From positions 1 to 41,895 of IMG/VR virus record IMGVR_UViG_3300037515_000067: a DNA stretch of 41,895 nucleotides, one strand, 5' to 3'. Of this stretch, positions 4,946 to 38,141 are shown in pieces (the stretch's first letter is position 1; each line of letters begins with the position of its first letter). The notes beneath the pieces are model-generated. The model saw only the letters and a list, made by a program, of their open reading frames with translations, did no database searches and had not been told where the DNA came from. Source of the DNA: a virus (Duplodnaviria; Caudoviricetes). Made by a program: the position numbers and the translations under genes.

Positions 4946-5130
4946 CTTGTAAATGCCTCCCAAGTTTTTTTAGACGGTGTCTTAATCGGATTTAGTGCTG
5001 ATTCACTCCGGTAAAATGTCGGCCCGTGGTAGTTGTGCCACTCCATCCAAACGCAAGCGCCGTATGGTTTCATGTTTACCCAGTAATCAGGCCCGCAGAT
5101 GAAACCGTGTTCAATTCTCATGCATGCCAT
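4927..5130 (-). CDS. Hypothetical protein
   Basis: ORF track, GGGGG RBS. Confidence 0.6.
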   Translation of the reverse strand: MACMRIEHGFICGPDYWVNMKPYGACVWMEWHNYHGPTFYRSESALNPIKTPSKKTWEAFTRWLLEK

Positions 5131-5281
5131 TTACCCCCCTTTTTATTTTCGGAAAATCCCATTCCTTTTCAAGGTAATTTCCTAAGCACTCCGGGCAATA
5201 ATATCCTTCTCTGTTCACTTCAAGAGGGGTGCCGCACTCCTTGCACCGATAACCTTGTTTGCGTGCTTCCGGTTCTTTCAT
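5111..5281 (-). CDS. Small zinc-ribbon protein (56 aa, not in ORF track)
   Basis: Manual translation MKEPEARKQGYRCKECGTPL...YYCPECLG; fills gap between genes. Confidence 0.55.
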   Translation of the reverse strand: MKEPEARKQGYRCKECGTPLEVNREGYYCPECLGNYLEKEWDFPKIKRGVNGMHEN

Positions 5282-5689
5282 TTATCCCCCTATCACCAGC
5301 AAGGCGGCATCCCTACCGTGTTCATTCGTCCGCCCCTGCCATTTGGTTACGGTGCGGAAATACTCCGCCGTCCATTTTGTAGCGCCCCTTTGTGGGGCAA
5401 TTGCGCGGGACTTGATGCCGTGGAACTGGCAGAATTCCGCCCAGATATTGCAGTCGCGTTTGACCGATCCGACACCCTGCAATACCTCTGCCCCCTTGCT
5501 CCCATACCACCGTCTTAAATTAGCGTCCTCGTATCTCAACTCGATTATTTCAAGTGGCCCGAGTTTTACTATTTTGTCCATTGCGGCGACTATGGACAAT
5601 GATGTCACCTCCAACAGTTTGCCAGTTGGTTTGTGCCAGATGGCAAACCCAGTGTTGACTCCGGGGTCGATACCGATGATAAATTGCAT
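5282..5689 (-). CDS. RuvC-like Holliday junction resolvase
   Basis: IIGIDPG...TGFA N-terminus, central Glu, C-terminal EHGRDAA. Confidence 0.8.
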   Translation of the reverse strand: MQFIIGIDPGVNTGFAIWHKPTGKLLEVTSLSIVAAMDKIVKLGPLEIIELRYEDANLRRWYGSKGAEVLQGVGSVKRDCNIWAEFCQFHGIKSRAIAPQRGATKWTAEYFRTVTKWQGRTNEHGRDAALLVIGG

Positions 5690-5715
5690 TTGCCCTCGAT
5701 GTTGTGACGCATTAA

Positions 5716-5758
5716 AATATGGGTTTATACAGGGGGGTCTATATAAGCCTTGTTAGAT
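5716..5758 (+). repeat. Array-head element copy 1 (attI-like candidate, G6 tract)
   Basis: AATATGGGTTTATACAG..TATAAGCCTTG|TTAGAT, near-identical to 37512-37557; ends in a GTTRRRY box. Confidence 0.7.
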
Positions 5759-6043
5759 GCTATCTGCTATTTCTCGCAGCCTGACAGCCATATCCTTGAG
5801 ACGCTCTGTTTGTTTTTCGATCTCTCGCAACACCACTTTCGGAATGTTTCCCGGCCAATCTTCCGAGTATTCCGACAGCGGCAATACAGTTAAACAGCGT
5901 GCTGCCTGAAAAATCAGCTTTCCCTTGGCGGCTTCAACTCTTTTCAACCTCGCATCTAACCCGGCGCTCAACTCGGACTTGCTACGCAAGTCGCGAATTT
6001 CGACTCCTGTGCAGTCCTTGAACATTTCGCTTTTTTCCATCAT
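5753..6043 (-). CDS. Hypothetical protein, cassette 1
   Basis: AAGGAG RBS and ATG lie inside the attC-like site; TAA stop is the TTA of the R' box at 5752. Confidence 0.7.
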   Translation of the reverse strand: MMEKSEMFKDCTGVEIRDLRSKSELSAGLDARLKRVEAAKGKLIFQAARCLTVLPLSEYSEDWPGNIPKVVLREIEKQTERLKDMAVRLREIADSI

Positions 6044-6086
6044 CTCTACTCCTTGGGCCGCAAGCCCGTTAGCTCAATCGTTGTAT
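5954..6086 (+). mobile_element. attC-like site (133 nt)
   Basis: R'' ATCTAAC, 5-nt spacer, L'' GCTCAACT (extra C), L' CGTTAGC, 6-nt spacer, R' GTTGTAT; GCATCTAAC complements GTTAGATGC at 5752. Confidence 0.8.
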
Positions 6087-6088
6087 TG

Positions 6089-6319
6089 CTAACCAAGGTG
6101 CAAATAAATCATCTTGTCTGGGGTCGATGAATATAGCGCATCATCTTTGCCGGAATAGCCACGGGGTTCCAACGGGTCTTTCTCATAGTACGAAACGCTA
6201 AAAACGGTTCCCTGGCTTTCCCCGGCAGAGTTGTCATGAGCCAAGACATGCACCGCTAATTTCCCACACCCATTTTTCTGTAGTTGCCTGAGTCTGGCTA
6301 TCAGTTTGTTGAGGTTCAT
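6089..6319 (-). CDS. Hypothetical protein, cassette 2
   Basis: AAGGA RBS before ATG 6319; lies wholly between two attC-like sites. Confidence 0.7.
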   Translation of the reverse strand: MNLNKLIARLRQLQKNGCGKLAVHVLAHDNSAGESQGTVFSVSYYEKDPLEPRGYSGKDDALYSSTPDKMIYLHLG

Positions 6320-6344
6320 CGTTTTGTCCTTTTTAAAAATCGCA

Positions 6345-6403
6345 ATACAACCAGTCAATCAACCGGATTCTCTACGCTCTCCCGGTTATTTCGGTCGTTA
6401 TGC
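6345..6403 (+). mobile_element. attC-like site (59 nt)
   Basis: R'' ATACAAC, L'' AATCAACC, L' GGTTATT, R' GTTATGC; GCAATACAAC complements GTTGTATTGC at 6080; near-identical to 37907-37964. Confidence 0.85.
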
Positions 6404-6407
6404 TTTG

Positions 6408-6641
6408 TCATTCCTTTACACGAAACCGGGTAAATCGTCGCTGGTCATCCGTTTCGGTTATCTCCATCTTTCCTAAGGTTTCGCCTTTTTCTTTGCCGAT
6501 GTATTCGCCGACAATGCGGCAGAGTTCGTCATCACTTAACTCAATTTCATTTGTTTTCACGCGAACCTCCTTGTCATGAGGGAGGATATGAACACAGGTG
6601 GAAATCCTACATCTTTGAGCCCCGCTGCATTGTACTTTCAT
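6408..6641 (-). CDS. Hypothetical protein, cassette 3
   Basis: GGAGG RBS; a second internal AAGGAGG+GTG start near 6560. Confidence 0.65.
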   Translation of the reverse strand: MKVQCSGAQRCRISTCVHILPHDKEVRVKTNEIELSDDELCRIVGEYIGKEKGETLGKMEITETDDQRRFTRFRVKE

Positions 6642-6653
6642 GGCACCTCCGAA

Positions 6654-6703
6654 AAATAACCACCCATCGAACCCGATAGGCGGGTTAATTTAATCCGTTA
6701 GCG
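6654..6703 (+). mobile_element. Short, partly degenerate attC-like site (50 nt)
   Basis: R'' AAATAAC, ATCGAACCCG/CGGGTTAAT stem, R' GTTAGCG; 7-nt right spacer and only 5/7 match to upstream R'. Confidence 0.6.
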
Positions 6704-7075
6704 AGAAACCGAAATAATTGATTCTGGGTGCTCGATACAGGACTTTAAATACTTCTCGATCCATGGCACAAAATGAATGTAAAGGCCCCACCCGTTGGGG
6801 GAATCAAACTTTTTATAGTGTTCGGGGCTATCCTTCATCTTCTGGAGGCCATCCGCCAACGGAGCAATAAGCTCTTTGGCGCTAATCAGGCCGAGTTCGT
6901 CAGGCCTCCAAAGGTGCATATATATCCCTGCTTCCTCCGCCATGTCGCCCAGATTATGGGTAATATTGGCATAAAAAAGCGTTTCTCGGTAAGTATGCTC
7001 GTGCTCATTATCGCATTTGCCACAACAACATCTTTCAGTTATTTCATCGCCGTGCAGGGTTACGTCTAAGCTCAT
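6698..7075 (-). CDS. Hypothetical protein, cassette 4
   Basis: GAGGT RBS; NITHNL...SPNGWG motifs I associate with phage hypotheticals; TAA stop is the TTA of R' at 6697. Confidence 0.8.
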   Translation of the reverse strand: MSLDVTLHGDEITERCCCGKCDNEHEHTYRETLFYANITHNLGDMAEEAGIYMHLWRPDELGLISAKELIAPLADGLQKMKDSPEHYKKFDSPNGWGLYIHFVPWIEKYLKSCIEHPESIISVSR

Positions 7076-7103
7076 AAGGCACCTCTATAATTTATCGTGA
7101 AAT

Positions 7104-7192
7104 CGCTAACAAACAGGTCAACCAGACCGCGTGAAGCGGCGGGTTTTCAAGGGTACCTCAGTGGCGCGGGCTGGTTACCCTTGGCGTTATCC
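7104..7192 (+). mobile_element. attC-like site (89 nt)
   Basis: R'' CGCTAAC, L'' GGTCAACC (extra C), CAGACC/GGCTG with second unpaired base, L' GGTTACC, R' GTTATCC; TCGCTAAC complements GTTAGCGA at 6697. Confidence 0.85.
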
Positions 7193-7199
7193 ACCCCAA

Positions 7200-7361
7200 T
7201 CATAGCCGGTACTTCTTGATAAGATCTGCAACCGCGATTGATTGCTGTAACGCCGTGTTGTCAGCTTCGACAAGTTTCAGCGCCAGGTATTTTATGACGC
7301 CATCTTTTTCTTCCCCTGCCGATTTCAGCGCGGCAATGATTGACCTGCATTCTTCGCACAT
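7200..7361 (-). CDS. Hypothetical protein (53 aa, not in ORF track)
   Basis: GGAGG RBS, MCEECRSIIAALK... Confidence 0.55.
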   Translation of the reverse strand: MCEECRSIIAALKSAGEEKDGVIKYLALKLVEADNTALQQSIAVADLIKKYRL

Positions 7362-7616
7362 TTAAACCTCCGTATCTATCATCCAATAAAACCAAATGTC
7401 TTTAAACCGTGCGCATCCGATATCAAACCCGTTTGCCCGTAGTTCAGATATGCACGAAGAAACGGCGCACACATTCGCCAGCCTGATTATATCCAACGTG
7501 CTGTAACATACGCCGCTAGATAGAAGATTCGCTACTCTTTGCAAACGTGGGCTTCTGTCTATCGAAGCGGCGTTTATTCTACCATGAATGCGGTGCTGCG
7601 GGTTGTTTTTTCTCAT
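7362..7616 (-). CDS. Helix-turn-helix DNA-binding protein
   Basis: STLDII...AVSSCISELRANGFDI winged-HTH-like pattern. Confidence 0.65.
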   Translation of the reverse strand: MRKNNPQHRIHGRINAASIDRSPRLQRVANLLSSGVCYSTLDIIRLANVCAVSSCISELRANGFDIGCARFKDIWFYWMIDTEV

Positions 7617-7888
7617 GTCTCCCCCAACATAAGACGATCCATTTTCTTGAGAAAGCACCGTGACCATTTGTTATCCATCGCCACTTTATCGTGCTGCGTA
7701 TCAGCGTAAGCACTGGCAGCATTGATAAAAGAGTTTCTCCGTTTAACATACGATGTGCATTTTTTGCACCGCACAACGGATACGGCGTGAATTTTCTTCG
7801 GCGGACCGTTCGCGACTACTATTGTTTCTACTGGATCAAGCCGCGTTATTTTGCACCCGCAAGGCGCGGTTTTAGTTGCGTGGTTCAT
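7613..7888 (-). CDS. Hypothetical protein
   Basis: ATGA overlaps, GGAGG RBS. Confidence 0.6.
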   Translation of the reverse strand: MNHATKTAPCGCKITRLDPVETIVVANGPPKKIHAVSVVRCKKCTSYVKRRNSFINAASAYADTQHDKVAMDNKWSRCFLKKMDRLMLGET

Positions 7889-8142
7889 TTACCCTCCATC
7901 ATTTCATTGGTTCGGTTGATTAACTCTTCCTGCGTGATAAATCTGCGCTCCCATTCTTTTTTCCCTAAATGGTGGATACCCTCCGTTCCTTGGTGATGAA
8001 GATAACATAGCGGGGAAGTTTTCCAGTTGTCGCGCTTTTCCCCGAACCGCCGGATATGGTGGACCGATACGGGCCTTGCCCCGCAGATCGCGCAAGGAAG
8101 GGAAGCAATAGCGGCAAGGTGCGACTTTTCCGCATTGGTCAT
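7885..8142 (-). CDS. Ref/DUF968-like HNH-fold nuclease
   Basis: LPCAICG...VHHIR...PLCYLHH...GIH pattern. Confidence 0.75.
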   Translation of the reverse strand: MTNAEKSHLAAIASLPCAICGARPVSVHHIRRFGEKRDNWKTSPLCYLHHQGTEGIHHLGKKEWERRFITQEELINRTNEMMEGK

Positions 8143-8525
8143 ATATCAACCCTTTCCCAAGTAACGCCCCGTTCCGATCCAAATGAATATACAAGCTCAA
8201 TCAGGTCTCTGAATTCGGTCTTACTCATCTTCGAAGTGTGCGCCCCGATGACTACAAAGCCTCCATCGATTCCGGGAACCGCCTTCTGTTTTTTGAGCCC
8301 TGCGGTCATCAGGTCTTTCCACTCTTCTGGAGTCAGTTTATTGCCGTACCATTCAACCTGATTCGATAGCTCGGTGAGTAGCGGCCAAAGCAATGCGTTT
8401 TGATCTAGGGACCGGCTAGGAGGCTTGATAATCACCTCCGTTCCGTCCTGCGCTTCTTTGACCGCTTGCATGGCGCGCTGCCGGATGAATCTATCCTTGA
8501 TGATGAAAGTGATTCGCCATTCCAT
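8139..8525 (-). CDS. ninB: NinB (lambda Orf)-family recombination protein
   Basis: RSLDQNALLW, WYGNKLTPEEWKD, TSKMSKTEFRDLIE. Confidence 0.9.
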   Translation of the reverse strand: MEWRITFIIKDRFIRQRAMQAVKEAQDGTEVIIKPPSRSLDQNALLWPLLTELSNQVEWYGNKLTPEEWKDLMTAGLKKQKAVPGIDGGFVVIGAHTSKMSKTEFRDLIELVYSFGSERGVTWERVDI

Positions 8526-8547
8526 TCAACCCCCCGCTGTTAAATTA

Positions 8548-8569
8548 CCCGCCCCGTTATTGGGGCGGG
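8548..8569. terminator. GC-rich hairpin, possible terminator
   Basis: CCCGCCCC-GTTATT-GGGGCGGG in the ERF/ninB gap; second hairpin at about 8579-8615. Confidence 0.45.
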
Positions 8570-8629
8570 TTTGCCTATCCCCCGGCCACCGTTGGCTGAC
8601 CAAATGGCCAGGGGTTTAGCGTAACTGGA

Positions 8630-9232
8630 TTATGCTCCGCCGAGTGCTTCACGTCTCGACTTAGCGGCCTTGTTGATTGCTGCCCTGCCAGCGTCCGGCA
8701 TGTTTGCTACCCATGCGGCGCGGTTGGATAGGATGTTGTCCACGTCTACCGGGTACATTGCGCCGTCGATTTCGGCCATGACGGTTTTATAGTGCGCCCT
8801 TTCTTCTGACGTGGTGTCAACCGGTTTCGCCTTGGCCGATGGTTCCTTGCCGTGGTTGTTCGTTGCATCCGCATCTTTGGTGTCATCTATCAGGAATAGA
8901 CCGTTAAGCGCGTATTTCCGGCTATATGAGCTTGTCGCGCCGGTAATCTGACTATCGTCCATTCCCTTGCGGTCTTCTGCCTCCCTTGCGTAGGCCGTCA
9001 CAACTGCTCTGCATCCGTCACCTCCCTCAAATGTGGCGGTGGCTTTAACGTAAATCCTCCCGCCGATTTCCTCCACCGTGTCGGAAATGGTCAATGTAGA
9101 GTCATACTTTTTTAGCAAAGGCTTGACCGCTTCGAAGATGTCCTCGCATGACCTGTAATGGTATTTACCGAAAGTGTTGTGCTGATTTTTCGGCGCTTTC
9201 AACTCCGACTGAATATTCCCCAATGCATTCAT
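8630..9232 (-). CDS. ERF-family ssDNA annealing protein
   Basis: ELKAPKNQHNTFGKYHYRSCEDI and GATSSYSRKYALNGLFLIDD. Confidence 0.9.
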   Translation of the reverse strand: MNALGNIQSELKAPKNQHNTFGKYHYRSCEDIFEAVKPLLKKYDSTLTISDTVEEIGGRIYVKATATFEGGDGCRAVVTAYAREAEDRKGMDDSQITGATSSYSRKYALNGLFLIDDTKDADATNNHGKEPSAKAKPVDTTSEERAHYKTVMAEIDGAMYPVDVDNILSNRAAWVANMPDAGRAAINKAAKSRREALGGA

Positions 9233-9718
9233 CTATTTAATCCTCAGTGATGTTCCCCTTACCAGCTTCGCCCCCGGCACTTCCTCCCCTTTTTTTAGTA
9301 CGTCCGCAATCGCTTTTTTGTCGATGCGGAAAGTCTCAGGGATAATCACGTTGTACCGTGGAGGGATCAGCCATTCGGCTTCTATCTCGACCGATGGCGG
9401 GTTGTTCTGGATGGTTACCTTGTGAGTCCCGGCGCTTACCTCCATCCGTTCGGCTTGTTCAAGGCATTGCTTCATGTATGCCTTGAGCTTCGCAATCCGA
9501 GCTTCCGCCGTCTTCCGCCGTGCCGAAATGCGTTCTTCCTCCGCTTTCGCCGCCGAAGTGAAAGCCTCCAACGTTGCGCAAAACTTCACGATGTTTTCCG
9601 CTTTGGCCTCAAGCGCCAGTTCCAGCTTTTCAAGACGGGATTCAGTTTCTTCGGTCCATTCTTCCTCCCCGAGGATTTGTGCTATCCCGTGGGATATTTC
9701 GTACAGATGCAGTTCCAT
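9233..9718 (-). CDS. Siphovirus Gp157-family protein
   Basis: LYEI N-terminus, coiled coil, NPPSVEI, IDKKAI..LKKGEEVPGAKL. Confidence 0.85.
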   Translation of the reverse strand: MELHLYEISHGIAQILGEEEWTEETESRLEKLELALEAKAENIVKFCATLEAFTSAAKAEEERISARRKTAEARIAKLKAYMKQCLEQAERMEVSAGTHKVTIQNNPPSVEIEAEWLIPPRYNVIIPETFRIDKKAIADVLKKGEEVPGAKLVRGTSLRIK

Positions 9719-9831
9719 CGACTTCCTCCGTTATTCCCCCGAAAATTTCCCGGTATCGTTCATCATCCGCCAGATCGTCGGCCCATGAGTCGTCCGCCGC
9801 TTCCCGTTCCATCCAGTTGCCAACCGGCCAG

Positions 9832-10092
9832 CTAGGCATGGTCTGGCTCTTCGTAGTCGGGGCCTTGTGTTTCGTCGTAATCGCTTTTTGATTCATCCTT
9901 GTTGAGTGCATCAGAAAGCAACACGAAAGACCCTTCCCACGTTGAAGCGGTATGATGCCCATATCCGTCAACGTATGTTATACACTCGACTTCGTGGTCC
10001 CCGTTGTGGAATTCAGTCAACCCGAAAATTAACTTGTGGAAACGTCCCCCGGCCAATAATTTCAACCTTTTTTTAGCTTCGGCGAATGTCAT
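9832..10092 (-). CDS. Hypothetical protein
   Basis: GGAGG RBS, ATGA overlap. Confidence 0.6.
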   Translation of the reverse strand: MTFAEAKKRLKLLAGGRFHKLIFGLTEFHNGDHEVECITYVDGYGHHTASTWEGSFVLLSDALNKDESKSDYDETQGPDYEEPDHA

Positions 10093-10241
10093 TGTCTGCC
10101 CTCCAAAATGGCCAACCTTGCGGCTCTGACTTCTGCTGTAGCCTCTTCTTCAATCGCTTCCACCGCTGCGAACGACAGGAACGCGAATATTGCCAATATT
10201 GCCAATATTGCTAGCGTTGTATCAACCACACTGTTTGCCAT
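10089..10241 (-). CDS. Small membrane protein (50 aa, not in ORF track)
   Basis: MANSVVDTTLAILAILAIFAFLSFAAVE... Confidence 0.5.
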   Translation of the reverse strand: MANSVVDTTLAILAILAIFAFLSFAAVEAIEEEATAEVRAARLAILEGRQ

Positions 10242-10392
10242 AATGTTTCACCGCCTCCCGTGTAAGAAATTCGGATAGTGCTTGGTCGAAAAGGTCAGAG
10301 GCTTTAACATCCTCCCCGGCTTGCTGCTTGCTGATTGCAAGCGCCCTGATCGACAGAATATGTTTTTCGTCGACGTAAATCGGTTTTCTCAT
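10222..10392 (-). CDS. Probable ribbon-helix-helix regulator (56 aa, not in ORF track)
   Basis: MRKPIYVDEKH...ASDLFDQALSEFL; GAGG RBS; first ORF after promoter at 10523-10551. Confidence 0.55.
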   Translation of the reverse strand: MRKPIYVDEKHILSIRALAISKQQAGEDVKASDLFDQALSEFLTREAVKHYGKQCG

Positions 10393-10522
10393 TATATATA
10401 CCTCTATTGATTATTTATTTTAGTTTGTCTCCCTGCCCCCCGTATCAGACGCGAGCGCGACAGTGTGGGAGGCTTTACGGGCTATTTAGTTGTCAATGAG
10501 CGGCTTCCTTGTTCGTGAAACA

Positions 10523-10551
10523 ACTATAAATTAACATGGCGTGGCAGTCAA
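10523..10551 (-). promoter_or_regulatory. Sigma70-type promoter for recombination/accessory operon
   Basis: TTGACT-17 nt-TATAGT with AT-rich upstream tract. Confidence 0.75.
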
Positions 10552-10646
10552 GATAAATAAATAAAAAAAGAAATATTTATTTCAGGCGGATATTTGTTTT
10601 TTGGATGGTGTTGTTTTTGTTTGGTTTTTCGGATGTTTGCGAAAGG

Positions 10647-10676
10647 ATACCCCCACCTGTGTCAGCATGGGGGTAT
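10647..10676 (-). terminator. Probable terminator ending the late operon
   Basis: ATACCCCCA...TGGGGGTAT inverted repeat just after last lysis-region gene; weak U tract. Confidence 0.5.
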
Positions 10677-10709
10677 TGTGTGACGTGATTTGTAGCGGTG
10701 TTTTGATCG

Positions 10710-11075
10710 TTAAAAATTGGAGCCGATGCCGAGGTTTGCACCTATGCGCACCCCGAGATACCCGAACTGTTCAGTTAACCACCATGACGTAGTTGCAACA
10801 TCCTTGCGGAATTCATCGTCCGCAAACTTTCTGTCCCTGGAGTTCCGTGCATGCTTGCACCGCCAGTCATGTCTGCATGTCGCGATAGGATGGTTGTGCC
10901 TGGGGAATAGACATACCAGGGGCCAGGGGACCGTTGCCCCGTCCCACTCGAATCCTGCCGGGATAGTCTCGATATGTCCGGCCATTGTCTTGTACGGAAG
11001 GCCAGCGGTTAAGGCTCGTTTTTTTGGCTTGCCTGGTACGTTGCGCATTCGGATAACGGTGCCACTATGGGCCAT
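10710..11075 (-). CDS. DUF1353-family protein
   Basis: IPAGFEWDGATVP, HDW, ADDEF motifs. Confidence 0.8.
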   Translation of the reverse strand: MAHSGTVIRMRNVPGKPKKRALTAGLPYKTMAGHIETIPAGFEWDGATVPWPLVCLFPRHNHPIATCRHDWRCKHARNSRDRKFADDEFRKDVATTSWWLTEQFGYLGVRIGANLGIGSNF

Positions 11076-33115: not shown

Positions 33116-33190
33116 TGGAGCCGCCGATAGGACTCGAACCTACATTGTTCTCGTTACAAGGGAGATGCCCAACCATTAGGCGACAGCGGC
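33116..33190 (-). tRNA. tRNA-Thr(UGU)
   Basis: Cloverleaf GCCGCTG...CGGCGGC-T-CCA, loop CTTGTAA, TTCGAGT T-loop; one C-C mismatch closing the anticodon stem. Confidence 0.9.
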
Positions 33191-33337: not shown

Positions 33338-33425
33338 TGGTGGGGCCGCGAGGATTCGAACCTCGAACATCTTTTCAGTACCGCAGGGTTACAGCCTGGT
33401 GCCTTAGCCGTTCAGCCACGTCCCC
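33338..33425 (-). tRNA. tRNA-Tyr(GUA)
   Basis: GGGGACG...CGGCCCC-A-CCA, loop CTGTAAC, long variable region, TTCGAAT T-loop; single mismatches in acceptor and anticodon stems. Confidence 0.85.
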
Positions 33426-34317: not shown

Positions 34318-34376
34318 TTGTGCGGCGGCAGGGCGCTGGGGATTCGCCTCTTCGGTTGGCCGACCTAGCCGCACAA
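34318..34376 (-). promoter_or_regulatory. Structured 5' leader of the HNH gene (three-way junction)
   Basis: 9-bp outer stem TTGTGCGGC/GCCGCACAA enclosing TCGG-CCAA-CCGA and GGCG-AATCCCCAG-CGCC hairpins. Confidence 0.55.
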
Positions 34377-37496: not shown

Positions 37497-37511
37497 TTCA
37501 TCCTCCGCTTA

Positions 37512-37557
37512 AATATGGGTTTATACAGGGGGGGGGGCTGTATAAGCCTTGTTATCG
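37512..37557 (+). repeat. Array-head element copy 2 (attI-like candidate, G10 tract)
   Basis: AATATGGGTTTATACAG..CTGTATAAGCCTTG|TTATCG; TTATACAG/CTGTATAA inverted repeat. Confidence 0.7.
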
Positions 37558-37890
37558 CTCAAACCAAAATATCACCGGTTTCCCGGTTGCCTCGACCAGC
37601 CCGTAACGCTCTGCCATGCGGTAATTTGCGCTCCGCAGTCTCAGCCGCTCTACCTGCGCCGTCATTTCGGCCCGGAACTGTTCCAGCGGATGCACCGATT
37701 TCCAGAGATTGCAAGCACGGCAGGCTGGCATCATGTTATCAATCGTGTCCGCGCCCCGGTATTTAGGGTTTACGGTAGGGTTGCCGCGCCATATTGGTTT
37801 CAGGTGGTCAACGTGCATCTGTTTCAGGGTGATTTCCTGACCACAATATGCACATCTGCCCCCGTATTTTGCATGCACCGTTTTTCTCAT
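37552..37890 (-). CDS. HNH endonuclease carried as a cassette
   Basis: KYGGRCAYCG, MHVDH, NMMPACRACNLWK; TAA stop is TTA of R' at 37551. Confidence 0.85.
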   Translation of the reverse strand: MRKTVHAKYGGRCAYCGQEITLKQMHVDHLKPIWRGNPTVNPKYRGADTIDNMMPACRACNLWKSVHPLEQFRAEMTAQVERLRLRSANYRMAERYGLVEATGKPVIFWFER

Positions 37891-37906: not shown

Positions 37907-37964
37907 CGATAACCAGTCAATCAACCGGATTCGCTACGCTCTCCGGTTATTTCGGTCGTTATAC
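37907..37964 (+). mobile_element. attC-like site (58 nt)
   Basis: R'' CGATAAC, L'' AATCAACC, L' GGTTATT, R' GTTATAC; GCGATAAC complements GTTATCGC at 37551. Confidence 0.85.
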
Positions 37965-38141
37965 GTGCTCGTACCCATCACGCATTCTGGAGGCTATGGA
38001 TTCCAGCTTCTCTGCCATGTACCACATATCATTGTTGTCTTGTCGAGAGACCACGCGGCAGCGGGTGGCATTGCGTCCCCTCAGAATTTTTACCGCCAGC
38101 ATCACCATGGTCGCTTCCAAATGTTTACGAATCCGGAGCAT
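37959..38141 (-). CDS. Hypothetical protein
   Basis: AGGAGG RBS within intergenic repeat; stop overlaps R' at 37958. Confidence 0.6.
   Translation of the reverse strand: MLRIRKHLEATMVMLAVKILRGRNATRCRVVSRQDNNDMWYMAEKLESIASRMRDGYEHV

Follow-up and report, generated by a model that had tools for sequence, protein, structure and literature searches.

A set of small phage genes interspersed with attC sites raises the question of whether integron cassettes can carry their genes in reverse, and how such cassettes could be recombined and read in a genome devoid of integrase. An attC site is an imperfect palindrome of four boxes (R''-L''-L'-R') with an extra-helical base in L'' and a crossover at G|TT, and this asymmetry gives the question a definite meaning.

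The window, i.e. the whole stretch of 41,895 bases that was analysed, is the entire viral record IMGVR_UViG_3300037515_000067, linear and 100% complete according to CheckV. A PHROG scan of its 77 ORFs described a contractile-tailed myovirus of ~41.9 kb, with matches to terminase, portal, capsid, sheath, baseplate, lysis, DnaB, Erf, NinB, resolvase, SSB, helicase and methyltransferase genes, every phage gene with a PHROGs match being on the minus strand. No tyrosine recombinase was found in the record (PF00589 search, no match at E ≤ 1), from which we infer a lytic lifestyle. The best read matches to the phage came from sediment metagenomes, one of which may be its source, an attempted host assignment could name none, and no RNA run containing the stretch was listed, a null result that carries no information on expression. 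An Rfam scan of the window returned two tRNAs and no attC-like family. These tRNA genes (33119-33190 and 33341-33425, both on the minus strand) are located upstream of the terminase genes, and a sub-threshold int-alpA RNA match lies at 34325-34372.

Sites and genes of the two arrays

Scanning the window with a script based on attC box rules revealed four sites, all on the plus strand, and a fifth, degenerate site was read from the sequence. The rules were anchored on the contig L027, a canonical array whose intI points away and whose Pfam-positive genes lie on the presumed top strand. Together with two attI-like sites, hereafter S0 and S1, these sites delimit two small arrays:

5715..5755, plus strand: S0, attI-like, left end of array 1; stem-loop, 5-nt spacer, crossover G5752|T5753, no attC model match
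5954..6086, plus strand: attC A, long type, 133 bp; scan and covariance model, crossover G6080|T
6345..6403, plus strand: attC B; scan and covariance model, crossover G6397|T
6654..6703, plus strand: attC C, degenerate; read from the sequence, no model match, crossover G6697|T
7104..7192, plus strand: attC D, right end of array 1; scan and covariance model, crossover G7186|T
37511..37554, plus strand: S1, second attI-like copy, left end of the second array; crossover G37551|T37552
37907..37964, plus strand: attC E; scan and covariance model, crossover G37958|T

The sites attC A, B, D and E share a 5-nt R''-L'' spacer, a 6-nt L'-R' spacer and an extra C in L''. They were also matched on the plus strand (E 6.8e-6 to 1.6e-3) by a covariance model trained on 15 attC sites from outside the window, 9 of them from the canonical array L027, the best minus-strand match being a partial one (E 0.04) inside a virion gene. 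The polarity of attC C, which displays a 7-nt spacer, a mismatch in L'' and no covariance-model match, rests on its neighbouring sites. Three sites of the window scored at least 13, against a mean of 0.05 (maximum 1) in 40 approximate dinucleotide shuffles. Constrained folds of the attC sites gave the expected stems at 0.8-5.1 kcal/mol above the minimum, and recombination would proceed through IntI acting on their folded bottom strand.

The ends of each cassette are complementary, the left-end GTT box pairing with the right-end R'' at 7, 7, 5, 7 and 7 of 7 positions, against only 5, 4, 4, 5 and 5 of 7 when the same comparison is made within single attC sites. This complementarity by itself leaves polarity unfixed, and it is the array ends that fix it: the left end is a non-attC site, the right end a full attC. 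Array 1, with three model-matched sites, a degenerate one and no integrase, falls within the definition of a CALIN (at least two attC sites and no intI). No intI lies beside it, as it would in a complete integron, and whereas a canonical cassette gene lies on the attC top strand and ends at R'', all five genes here are on the bottom strand:

5282..5689, minus strand: Holliday junction resolvase gene (PHROG match), translated right after S0, in the position held by intI in IntI-bearing phages
5753..6043, minus strand: ORF A, 96 aa; ribosome site and ATG inside attC A, crosses L'' and R'', TAA in the S0 core
6089..6319, minus strand: ORF B, 76 aa; TAG 9 nt from the crossover, 6 relatives
6408..6641, minus strand: ORF C, 77 aa; TGA 11 nt from the crossover, identified by its ORF and ribosome site
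6698..7075, minus strand: ORF D, 125 aa, phrog_4019, a common phage protein; TAA in R' of attC C
7200..7361, minus strand: flanking gene, 53 aa; ends 14 nt from the last crossover of array 1
37552..37890, minus strand: ORF E, 112-aa HNH endonuclease (family match); TAA in the S1 core
37959..38141, minus strand: flanking gene, phrog_23588; TAA in R' of attC E

An initial reading of the sequence alone had placed the attC top strand on plus and all five cassette ORFs on minus, along phage transcription, with stop codons at 5753, 6698, 37552 and 37959 formed by the R' box. The site polarity is borne out for four sites by the covariance model, attC C being degenerate, and the gene strand by homology: ORF D has 3,229 homologues and the rival plus-strand ORF at 6773-7069 has none, ORF E is an HNH endonuclease, and ORFs B and A have 6 and 2 relatives, respectively. 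ORF C had no match in PHROG/Pfam-type family scans. The four stops are indeed the TTA that immediately follows the crossover G, and the remaining three gene ends are TAG or TGA codons at 9, 11 and 14 nt from a crossover. Among the five cassette and two flanking genes, four of seven end in TAAC, against 2 of the 64 other genes; since the crossover box itself provides the TAA, the closeness of all seven gene ends to a crossover is better evidence than this count. The gene at 7200..7361 could be resident at the empty site, or else derive from a cassette whose attC has been lost, and the covariance model found no attC to its right.

The family of ORF D counts more than 3,000 members with conserved N-x-T-H-N and N-G-W-G motifs, and its structure, predicted with confidence (pLDDT 96.9), resembled no PDB entry at E ≤ 0.001.

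The attI-like sites S0 and S1 (~40 nt) are near-identical up to G|TTA and divergent immediately after it. On the mRNA strand, both display the order stop-AAC, 5 nt, stem-loop, ribosome site and next ATG. In run X5, from another study, a 130-nt contig matches S1 apart from 5 changes and 2 gaps and switches to a different sequence right after GTTA, and run X1 provides one more S1-like variant. This switch right after GTTA, seen in few copies, may reflect an attI-like behaviour of S0 and S1. Their layout, but not their sequence, is shared with the site that precedes phage intI genes. The S0 pattern had no match in IMG/VR or JGI metagenome contigs, and the resolvase homologues (17 loci at 43-54% identity, 6 of them inspected) had diverged too far to reveal an empty S0. 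Promoter-like sites in 5000-10800 were at chance level (7, versus 6.5 in shuffles), and one weak plus-strand site occurs at 5690-5718, the cassette genes facing the other way.

Other repeats were observed in the genome. A ~25-nt box occurs five times at gene junctions between 38152 and 39191, spaced by 237-280 nt, each copy directly preceding a ribosome site and ATG on the minus strand and having no attC model match; these boxes could be promoter or regulator boxes, or att-site relics. In addition, a 76-aa ORF spans the joined genome ends, and if the genome is circular, S0 and S1 would be direct-repeat docks ~10 kb apart, flanking the replication genes.

Orientation of cassette genes in viruses and bacteria

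Using an orientation-blind attC pattern, we retrieved 88 viral loci and defined cassettes as adjacent site pairs with at least 6/7 end complementarity. First-pass longest-ORF calls (21 reversed, 29 canonical, 40 undecided) were rejected as too noisy in GC-rich viral cassettes, the longest-ORF call alone giving 43 bottom and 28 top, and were replaced by family matches and ribosome-site counts. PHROG matches were obtained for 16 of the 72 bottom-strand viral cassette ORFs against 1 of the 75 top-strand ones, this single match being 10 residues long; 15 cassettes of the L027 contig were set aside as a control, and 3 bottom-strand ORFs below 25 aa were left unscanned. An ORF covering over half of the cassette together with a ribosome site was found on the bottom strand only in 38 of 72 viral cassettes, on the top strand only in 1, on both in 2 and on neither in 31, these cassettes being drawn from 39 of 122 loci and non-independent when they belong to one contig or to related phages.

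By contrast, the same criterion applied to 45 bacterial cassettes (6 of 26 loci, 3 genomes) gave 5 on the top strand only, none on the bottom strand only and 40 on neither, with the longer ORF on the top strand in 44 of 45. A Pfam control, covering 46 of 56 cassettes after omission of likely repeats and one L027 cassette, matched 9/46 top versus 0/46 bottom ORFs. This control comprised 3 genomes of one bacterial order and three isolate-derived viral loci; because the broad attC pattern matched a single genome among 401 from one phylum, it was drawn from one integron-rich order.

The mirror-image cassette class proposed from the sequence alone thus extends from this phage to others, viral cassettes being mostly reversed and the bacterial controls canonical. 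Reversal is not universal among phages: under our own model, TJE1 has three attC matches and its genes on the plus strand, and M16-3 has attC matches and genes on the minus strand. Both are canonical, so that phages hold both polarities.

DNA methyltransferases or a Mom-like protein were observed in many reversed cassettes (L114, L122, L146, L147, L170, L183 and L019), which suggests an anti-restriction cargo.

Integrase-bearing phages and shared cassettes

Searching with attC B/E as a seed led to the contigs L002 (=L009) and L004 (=L020), which carry an integron integrase, the IntI of L002 scoring 398 bits against TIGR02249 (cut-off 265). In L009 and L020, intI lies on the gene strand, downstream of opposite-strand attC sites and upstream of the terminase. 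Similarly, L016, L018 and L022 contain runs of plus-strand genes ending in TAAC before a minus-strand attC or before the site that precedes intI, and the last gene of these runs ends at the hairpin preceding the intI ribosome site. Sites are shared with this group: attC E is identical to an L009 site over 52/52 nt, and attC A has 79% identity with an L016 site over 120 nt. In a tree of 44 IntI rows, 11 phage IntIs form one clade (support 99/99) with no bacterial IntI among its members, while the viral rows L023 and L027 nest among the 17 bacterial IntIs. L017 and L022 are absent from this tree, and since its bacterial rows come from one order, the exclusivity of the clade is limited to that sample. 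Another virus, Rctr41k, carries an IntI-like gene with no convincing attC within 10 kb around it.

A conserved CCGCC/GGCGG hairpin was also observed between the last cassette TAAC and the intI ribosome site in L009, L011 and L014-L022, and terminase genes follow in five of these phage integrons.

Comparison between phages documents the movement of a unit with breakpoints at G|TT for one cassette of the five. Two further phage contigs, L237 (93% aa) and L238 (82% aa), carry the HNH cassette among different neighbours. L237 keeps the upstream hairpin arm and breaks at R', and L238 retains only R'' of the upstream site. DNA homology with the complete phage G458, in which no IntI was found, starts at the crossover G (37551) and ends at 37929, inside attC E. 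Just after the HNH stop in L238 (~937-990), a hairpin, ribosome site and ATG reproduce the S0/S1 layout with another sequence, possibly another attI-like dock.

Of the loci retrieved with the attC B/E seed, 6 were viral, 2 came from genomes and 8 from metagenomes. The loci whose neighbours could be identified are phage-like, three short loci were unplaceable and no locus belongs to a canonical array; the two MAGs with this attC type have no IntI above the cut-off. No attC was found beside IMG/VR homologues of ORF D (4/4 loci) or beside 2 distant HNH (ORF E) loci, and the nearest Atlas clusters of ORF D are 76-100% viral. Homologues without attC and viral Atlas clusters make the cargo look like ordinary phage genes that have since been packaged.

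One small-gene attC B/E cassette was observed to recur in several unrelated phage contigs (L001:687-896, L004-L008, L232 and L235), mostly preceding a second small gene. Array 1 had no blastn match among GenBank phages, and no precise cassette excision joint was present in the assembled contigs of six runs. One joint (6074-6342) was considered as an excision product and rejected, with a 30-nt side and a position off the crossovers.

The long attC A raises a further point, as ORF A starts inside it behind AGGAG and its frame remains open across L'' and R''. The type-A motif occurred at 31 viral loci, of which 24 were duplicates or lacked a full attC by the rule, leaving 7 distinct full sites. 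In 8/8 sites (these 7 and the window), an ORF starts inside the site and crosses R'', with a ribosome site in 7/8 (6/7 related sites plus the window) and a TAAC end in 6/8. The pairs L246/L265 and L250/L255 have common N-terminal peptides on unrelated bodies. At the protein level, the first 30 residues of ORF A stand on a different body in P0123, and the body of ORF A stands behind a different attC-like N-terminus in P0122. Since standard R' recombination keeps gene and attC joined, these switches at R'' point either to cassettes having been created repeatedly from one attC family or to a second route of exchange.

Mechanism, alternatives and known systems

We consider it probable that the locus consists of two small arrays of reversed cassettes, recombined at G|TT by an IntI acting in trans, entering at S0 or S1 and read by the leftward phage transcript. 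IntI would cut the folded bottom strand at the R' box, so that a cassette would have the form TT-[gene, reversed]-R''-hairpin-G, and new cassettes would enter at S0 or S1, i.e. at the promoter-distal end. The mRNA would correspond to the attC bottom strand, in the order hairpin, ribosome site, gene and stop in the next TAAC, long type-A sites supplying the ribosome site, the start codon and the first ~30 codons. The integrase could be supplied by a phage of the IntI-bearing clade with the same attC types, either resident as a prophage or co-infecting, or by the host. The bottom-strand selectivity of IntI on attC is covered in PMC8946536, and phage attC sites are described as IntI1 substrates in section 3.4 of PMC9892861. 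This selectivity sets the polarity of the hairpin, not the direction of the gene. Given this orientation, the genes would be expressed from the phage operon and would stay silent if placed behind a host Pc. Cassettes silent behind Pc would likely circulate among phages, with ordinary phage accessory genes as cargo, and the recurrence of cassettes and hairpins in other phages likely reflects a phage-kept cassette pool.

The attC-derived sites could instead serve now as short homology linkers, through which the Erf-like annealing protein, NinB and the resolvase would swap genes with no role for IntI. The genome has no tyrosine recombinase, the genes for Erf, NinB and the resolvase lie on the flanks of array 1, attC B is nearly a copy of attC E, attC C has decayed and switches at R'' do occur. 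We nevertheless regard this as unlikely, given that homology stops at the G|TT base, beyond which the sites are unrelated, that complementary ends are kept at 7/7 in four cassettes and that the extra base is preserved in four sites. An origin in the chromosomal arrays of an unsampled host lineage with reversed or self-promoted cassettes, of which the phage would keep the transcript-facing ones, seems quite unlikely: all placeable attC B/E loci are phage-like and none is in a canonical array, the two MAGs lack an IntI above the cut-off, the ORF D Atlas clusters are 76-100% viral, and D and HNH homologues have no adjacent attC. It would accommodate a host assignment that named no host, a bacterial control that spans one order and an integrase that has to come in trans.

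A more radical alternative is that cleavage by a divergent IntI falls on the other strand, at R'', the cassettes being then functionally canonical on the minus strand. Such an activity would agree with one attC-encoded N-terminus on different bodies, with one body behind another attC-like N-terminus and with L238, which retains only R'' of the upstream site. It is highly improbable in view of the non-attC site and intI on the R' side, of the break at R' with the upstream hairpin arm kept in L237, and of an L009 IntI that scores as an ordinary integron integrase. Finally, ordinary cassettes might have been inserted backwards by rare recombination of top strands, which recombine at a lower rate according to PMC9892861. 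In that case, gene and attC would invert together, whereas here attC points away from the attI-like site as usual and the gene alone is reversed, and we give this explanation practically no credence.

For the origin of the reversed cassettes, which plausibly bear on cassette creation, a question named as open in PMC8618304, we can only tentatively propose that phages make and trade their own. Their attC hairpins would be joined at R'', at the DNA level, to phage genes or gene fragments, type-A sites acting as portable start modules, while the phage IntI clade would shuffle the products and the docks of integrase-less phages would borrow that enzyme. If this were true, it would argue against an origin by reverse transcription, as the mRNA corresponds to the bottom strand and its cDNA to the poorly recombining top strand. 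Ordinary phage genes, with homologues devoid of attC, are here found in cassettes of reversed polarity, and members of one attC family are joined to different bodies precisely at R''; these cassettes and fusions provide concrete substrates for testing how an attC becomes attached to a gene. They further suggest that integrons act as a variation module of phages, the counterpart of anti-phage cassettes in hosts. In practical terms, tools pairing a gene with its downstream attC would pick the wrong site in this phage.

We found no description of phage cassette genes antisense to attC in the accessible literature, including PMC9892861, PMC8876359, PMC8618304, PMC13323075 and bioRxiv 10.1101/2022.09.11.507474. 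The closest system is that of the phage CALINs and integrons of Qi et al. 2023 (PMC9892861), with which this phage shares integrase-less attC arrays, predicted IntI substrates and genes along phage transcription. Their arrays in TJE1 and M16-3 are canonical and the consulted parts do not describe genes antisense to attC, whereas here two arrays start from a shared attI-like site and one attC contains a gene start. As outlined in PMC8946536, regular bacterial integrons have in common with our loci the attC anatomy, the complementary cassette ends and, for L009-L022, the attI/intI layout relative to attC polarity. Unlike in those integrons, the genes here read toward attI/intI rather than away from Pc, with the stop in R' and not in R''; intI comes next on the same transcript in related phages, and this phage has none. 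Integrons with an inverted integrase (PMC13323075) also have intI and cassette genes on one strand, but their intI and attC are on the same strand, while here intI is opposite attC as usual and it is the gene inside each cassette that is turned around. Insertion at genomic attG sites (bioRxiv 10.1101/2022.09.11.507474) likewise places cassettes outside a full integron platform; by contrast, the left junction is here conserved, repeated and used by several cassettes, and is not a chance site. Compared with these systems, this phage contributes a pair of docks in a genome without integrase, the tracing of one cassette through three phages, and the type-A site as a start module.
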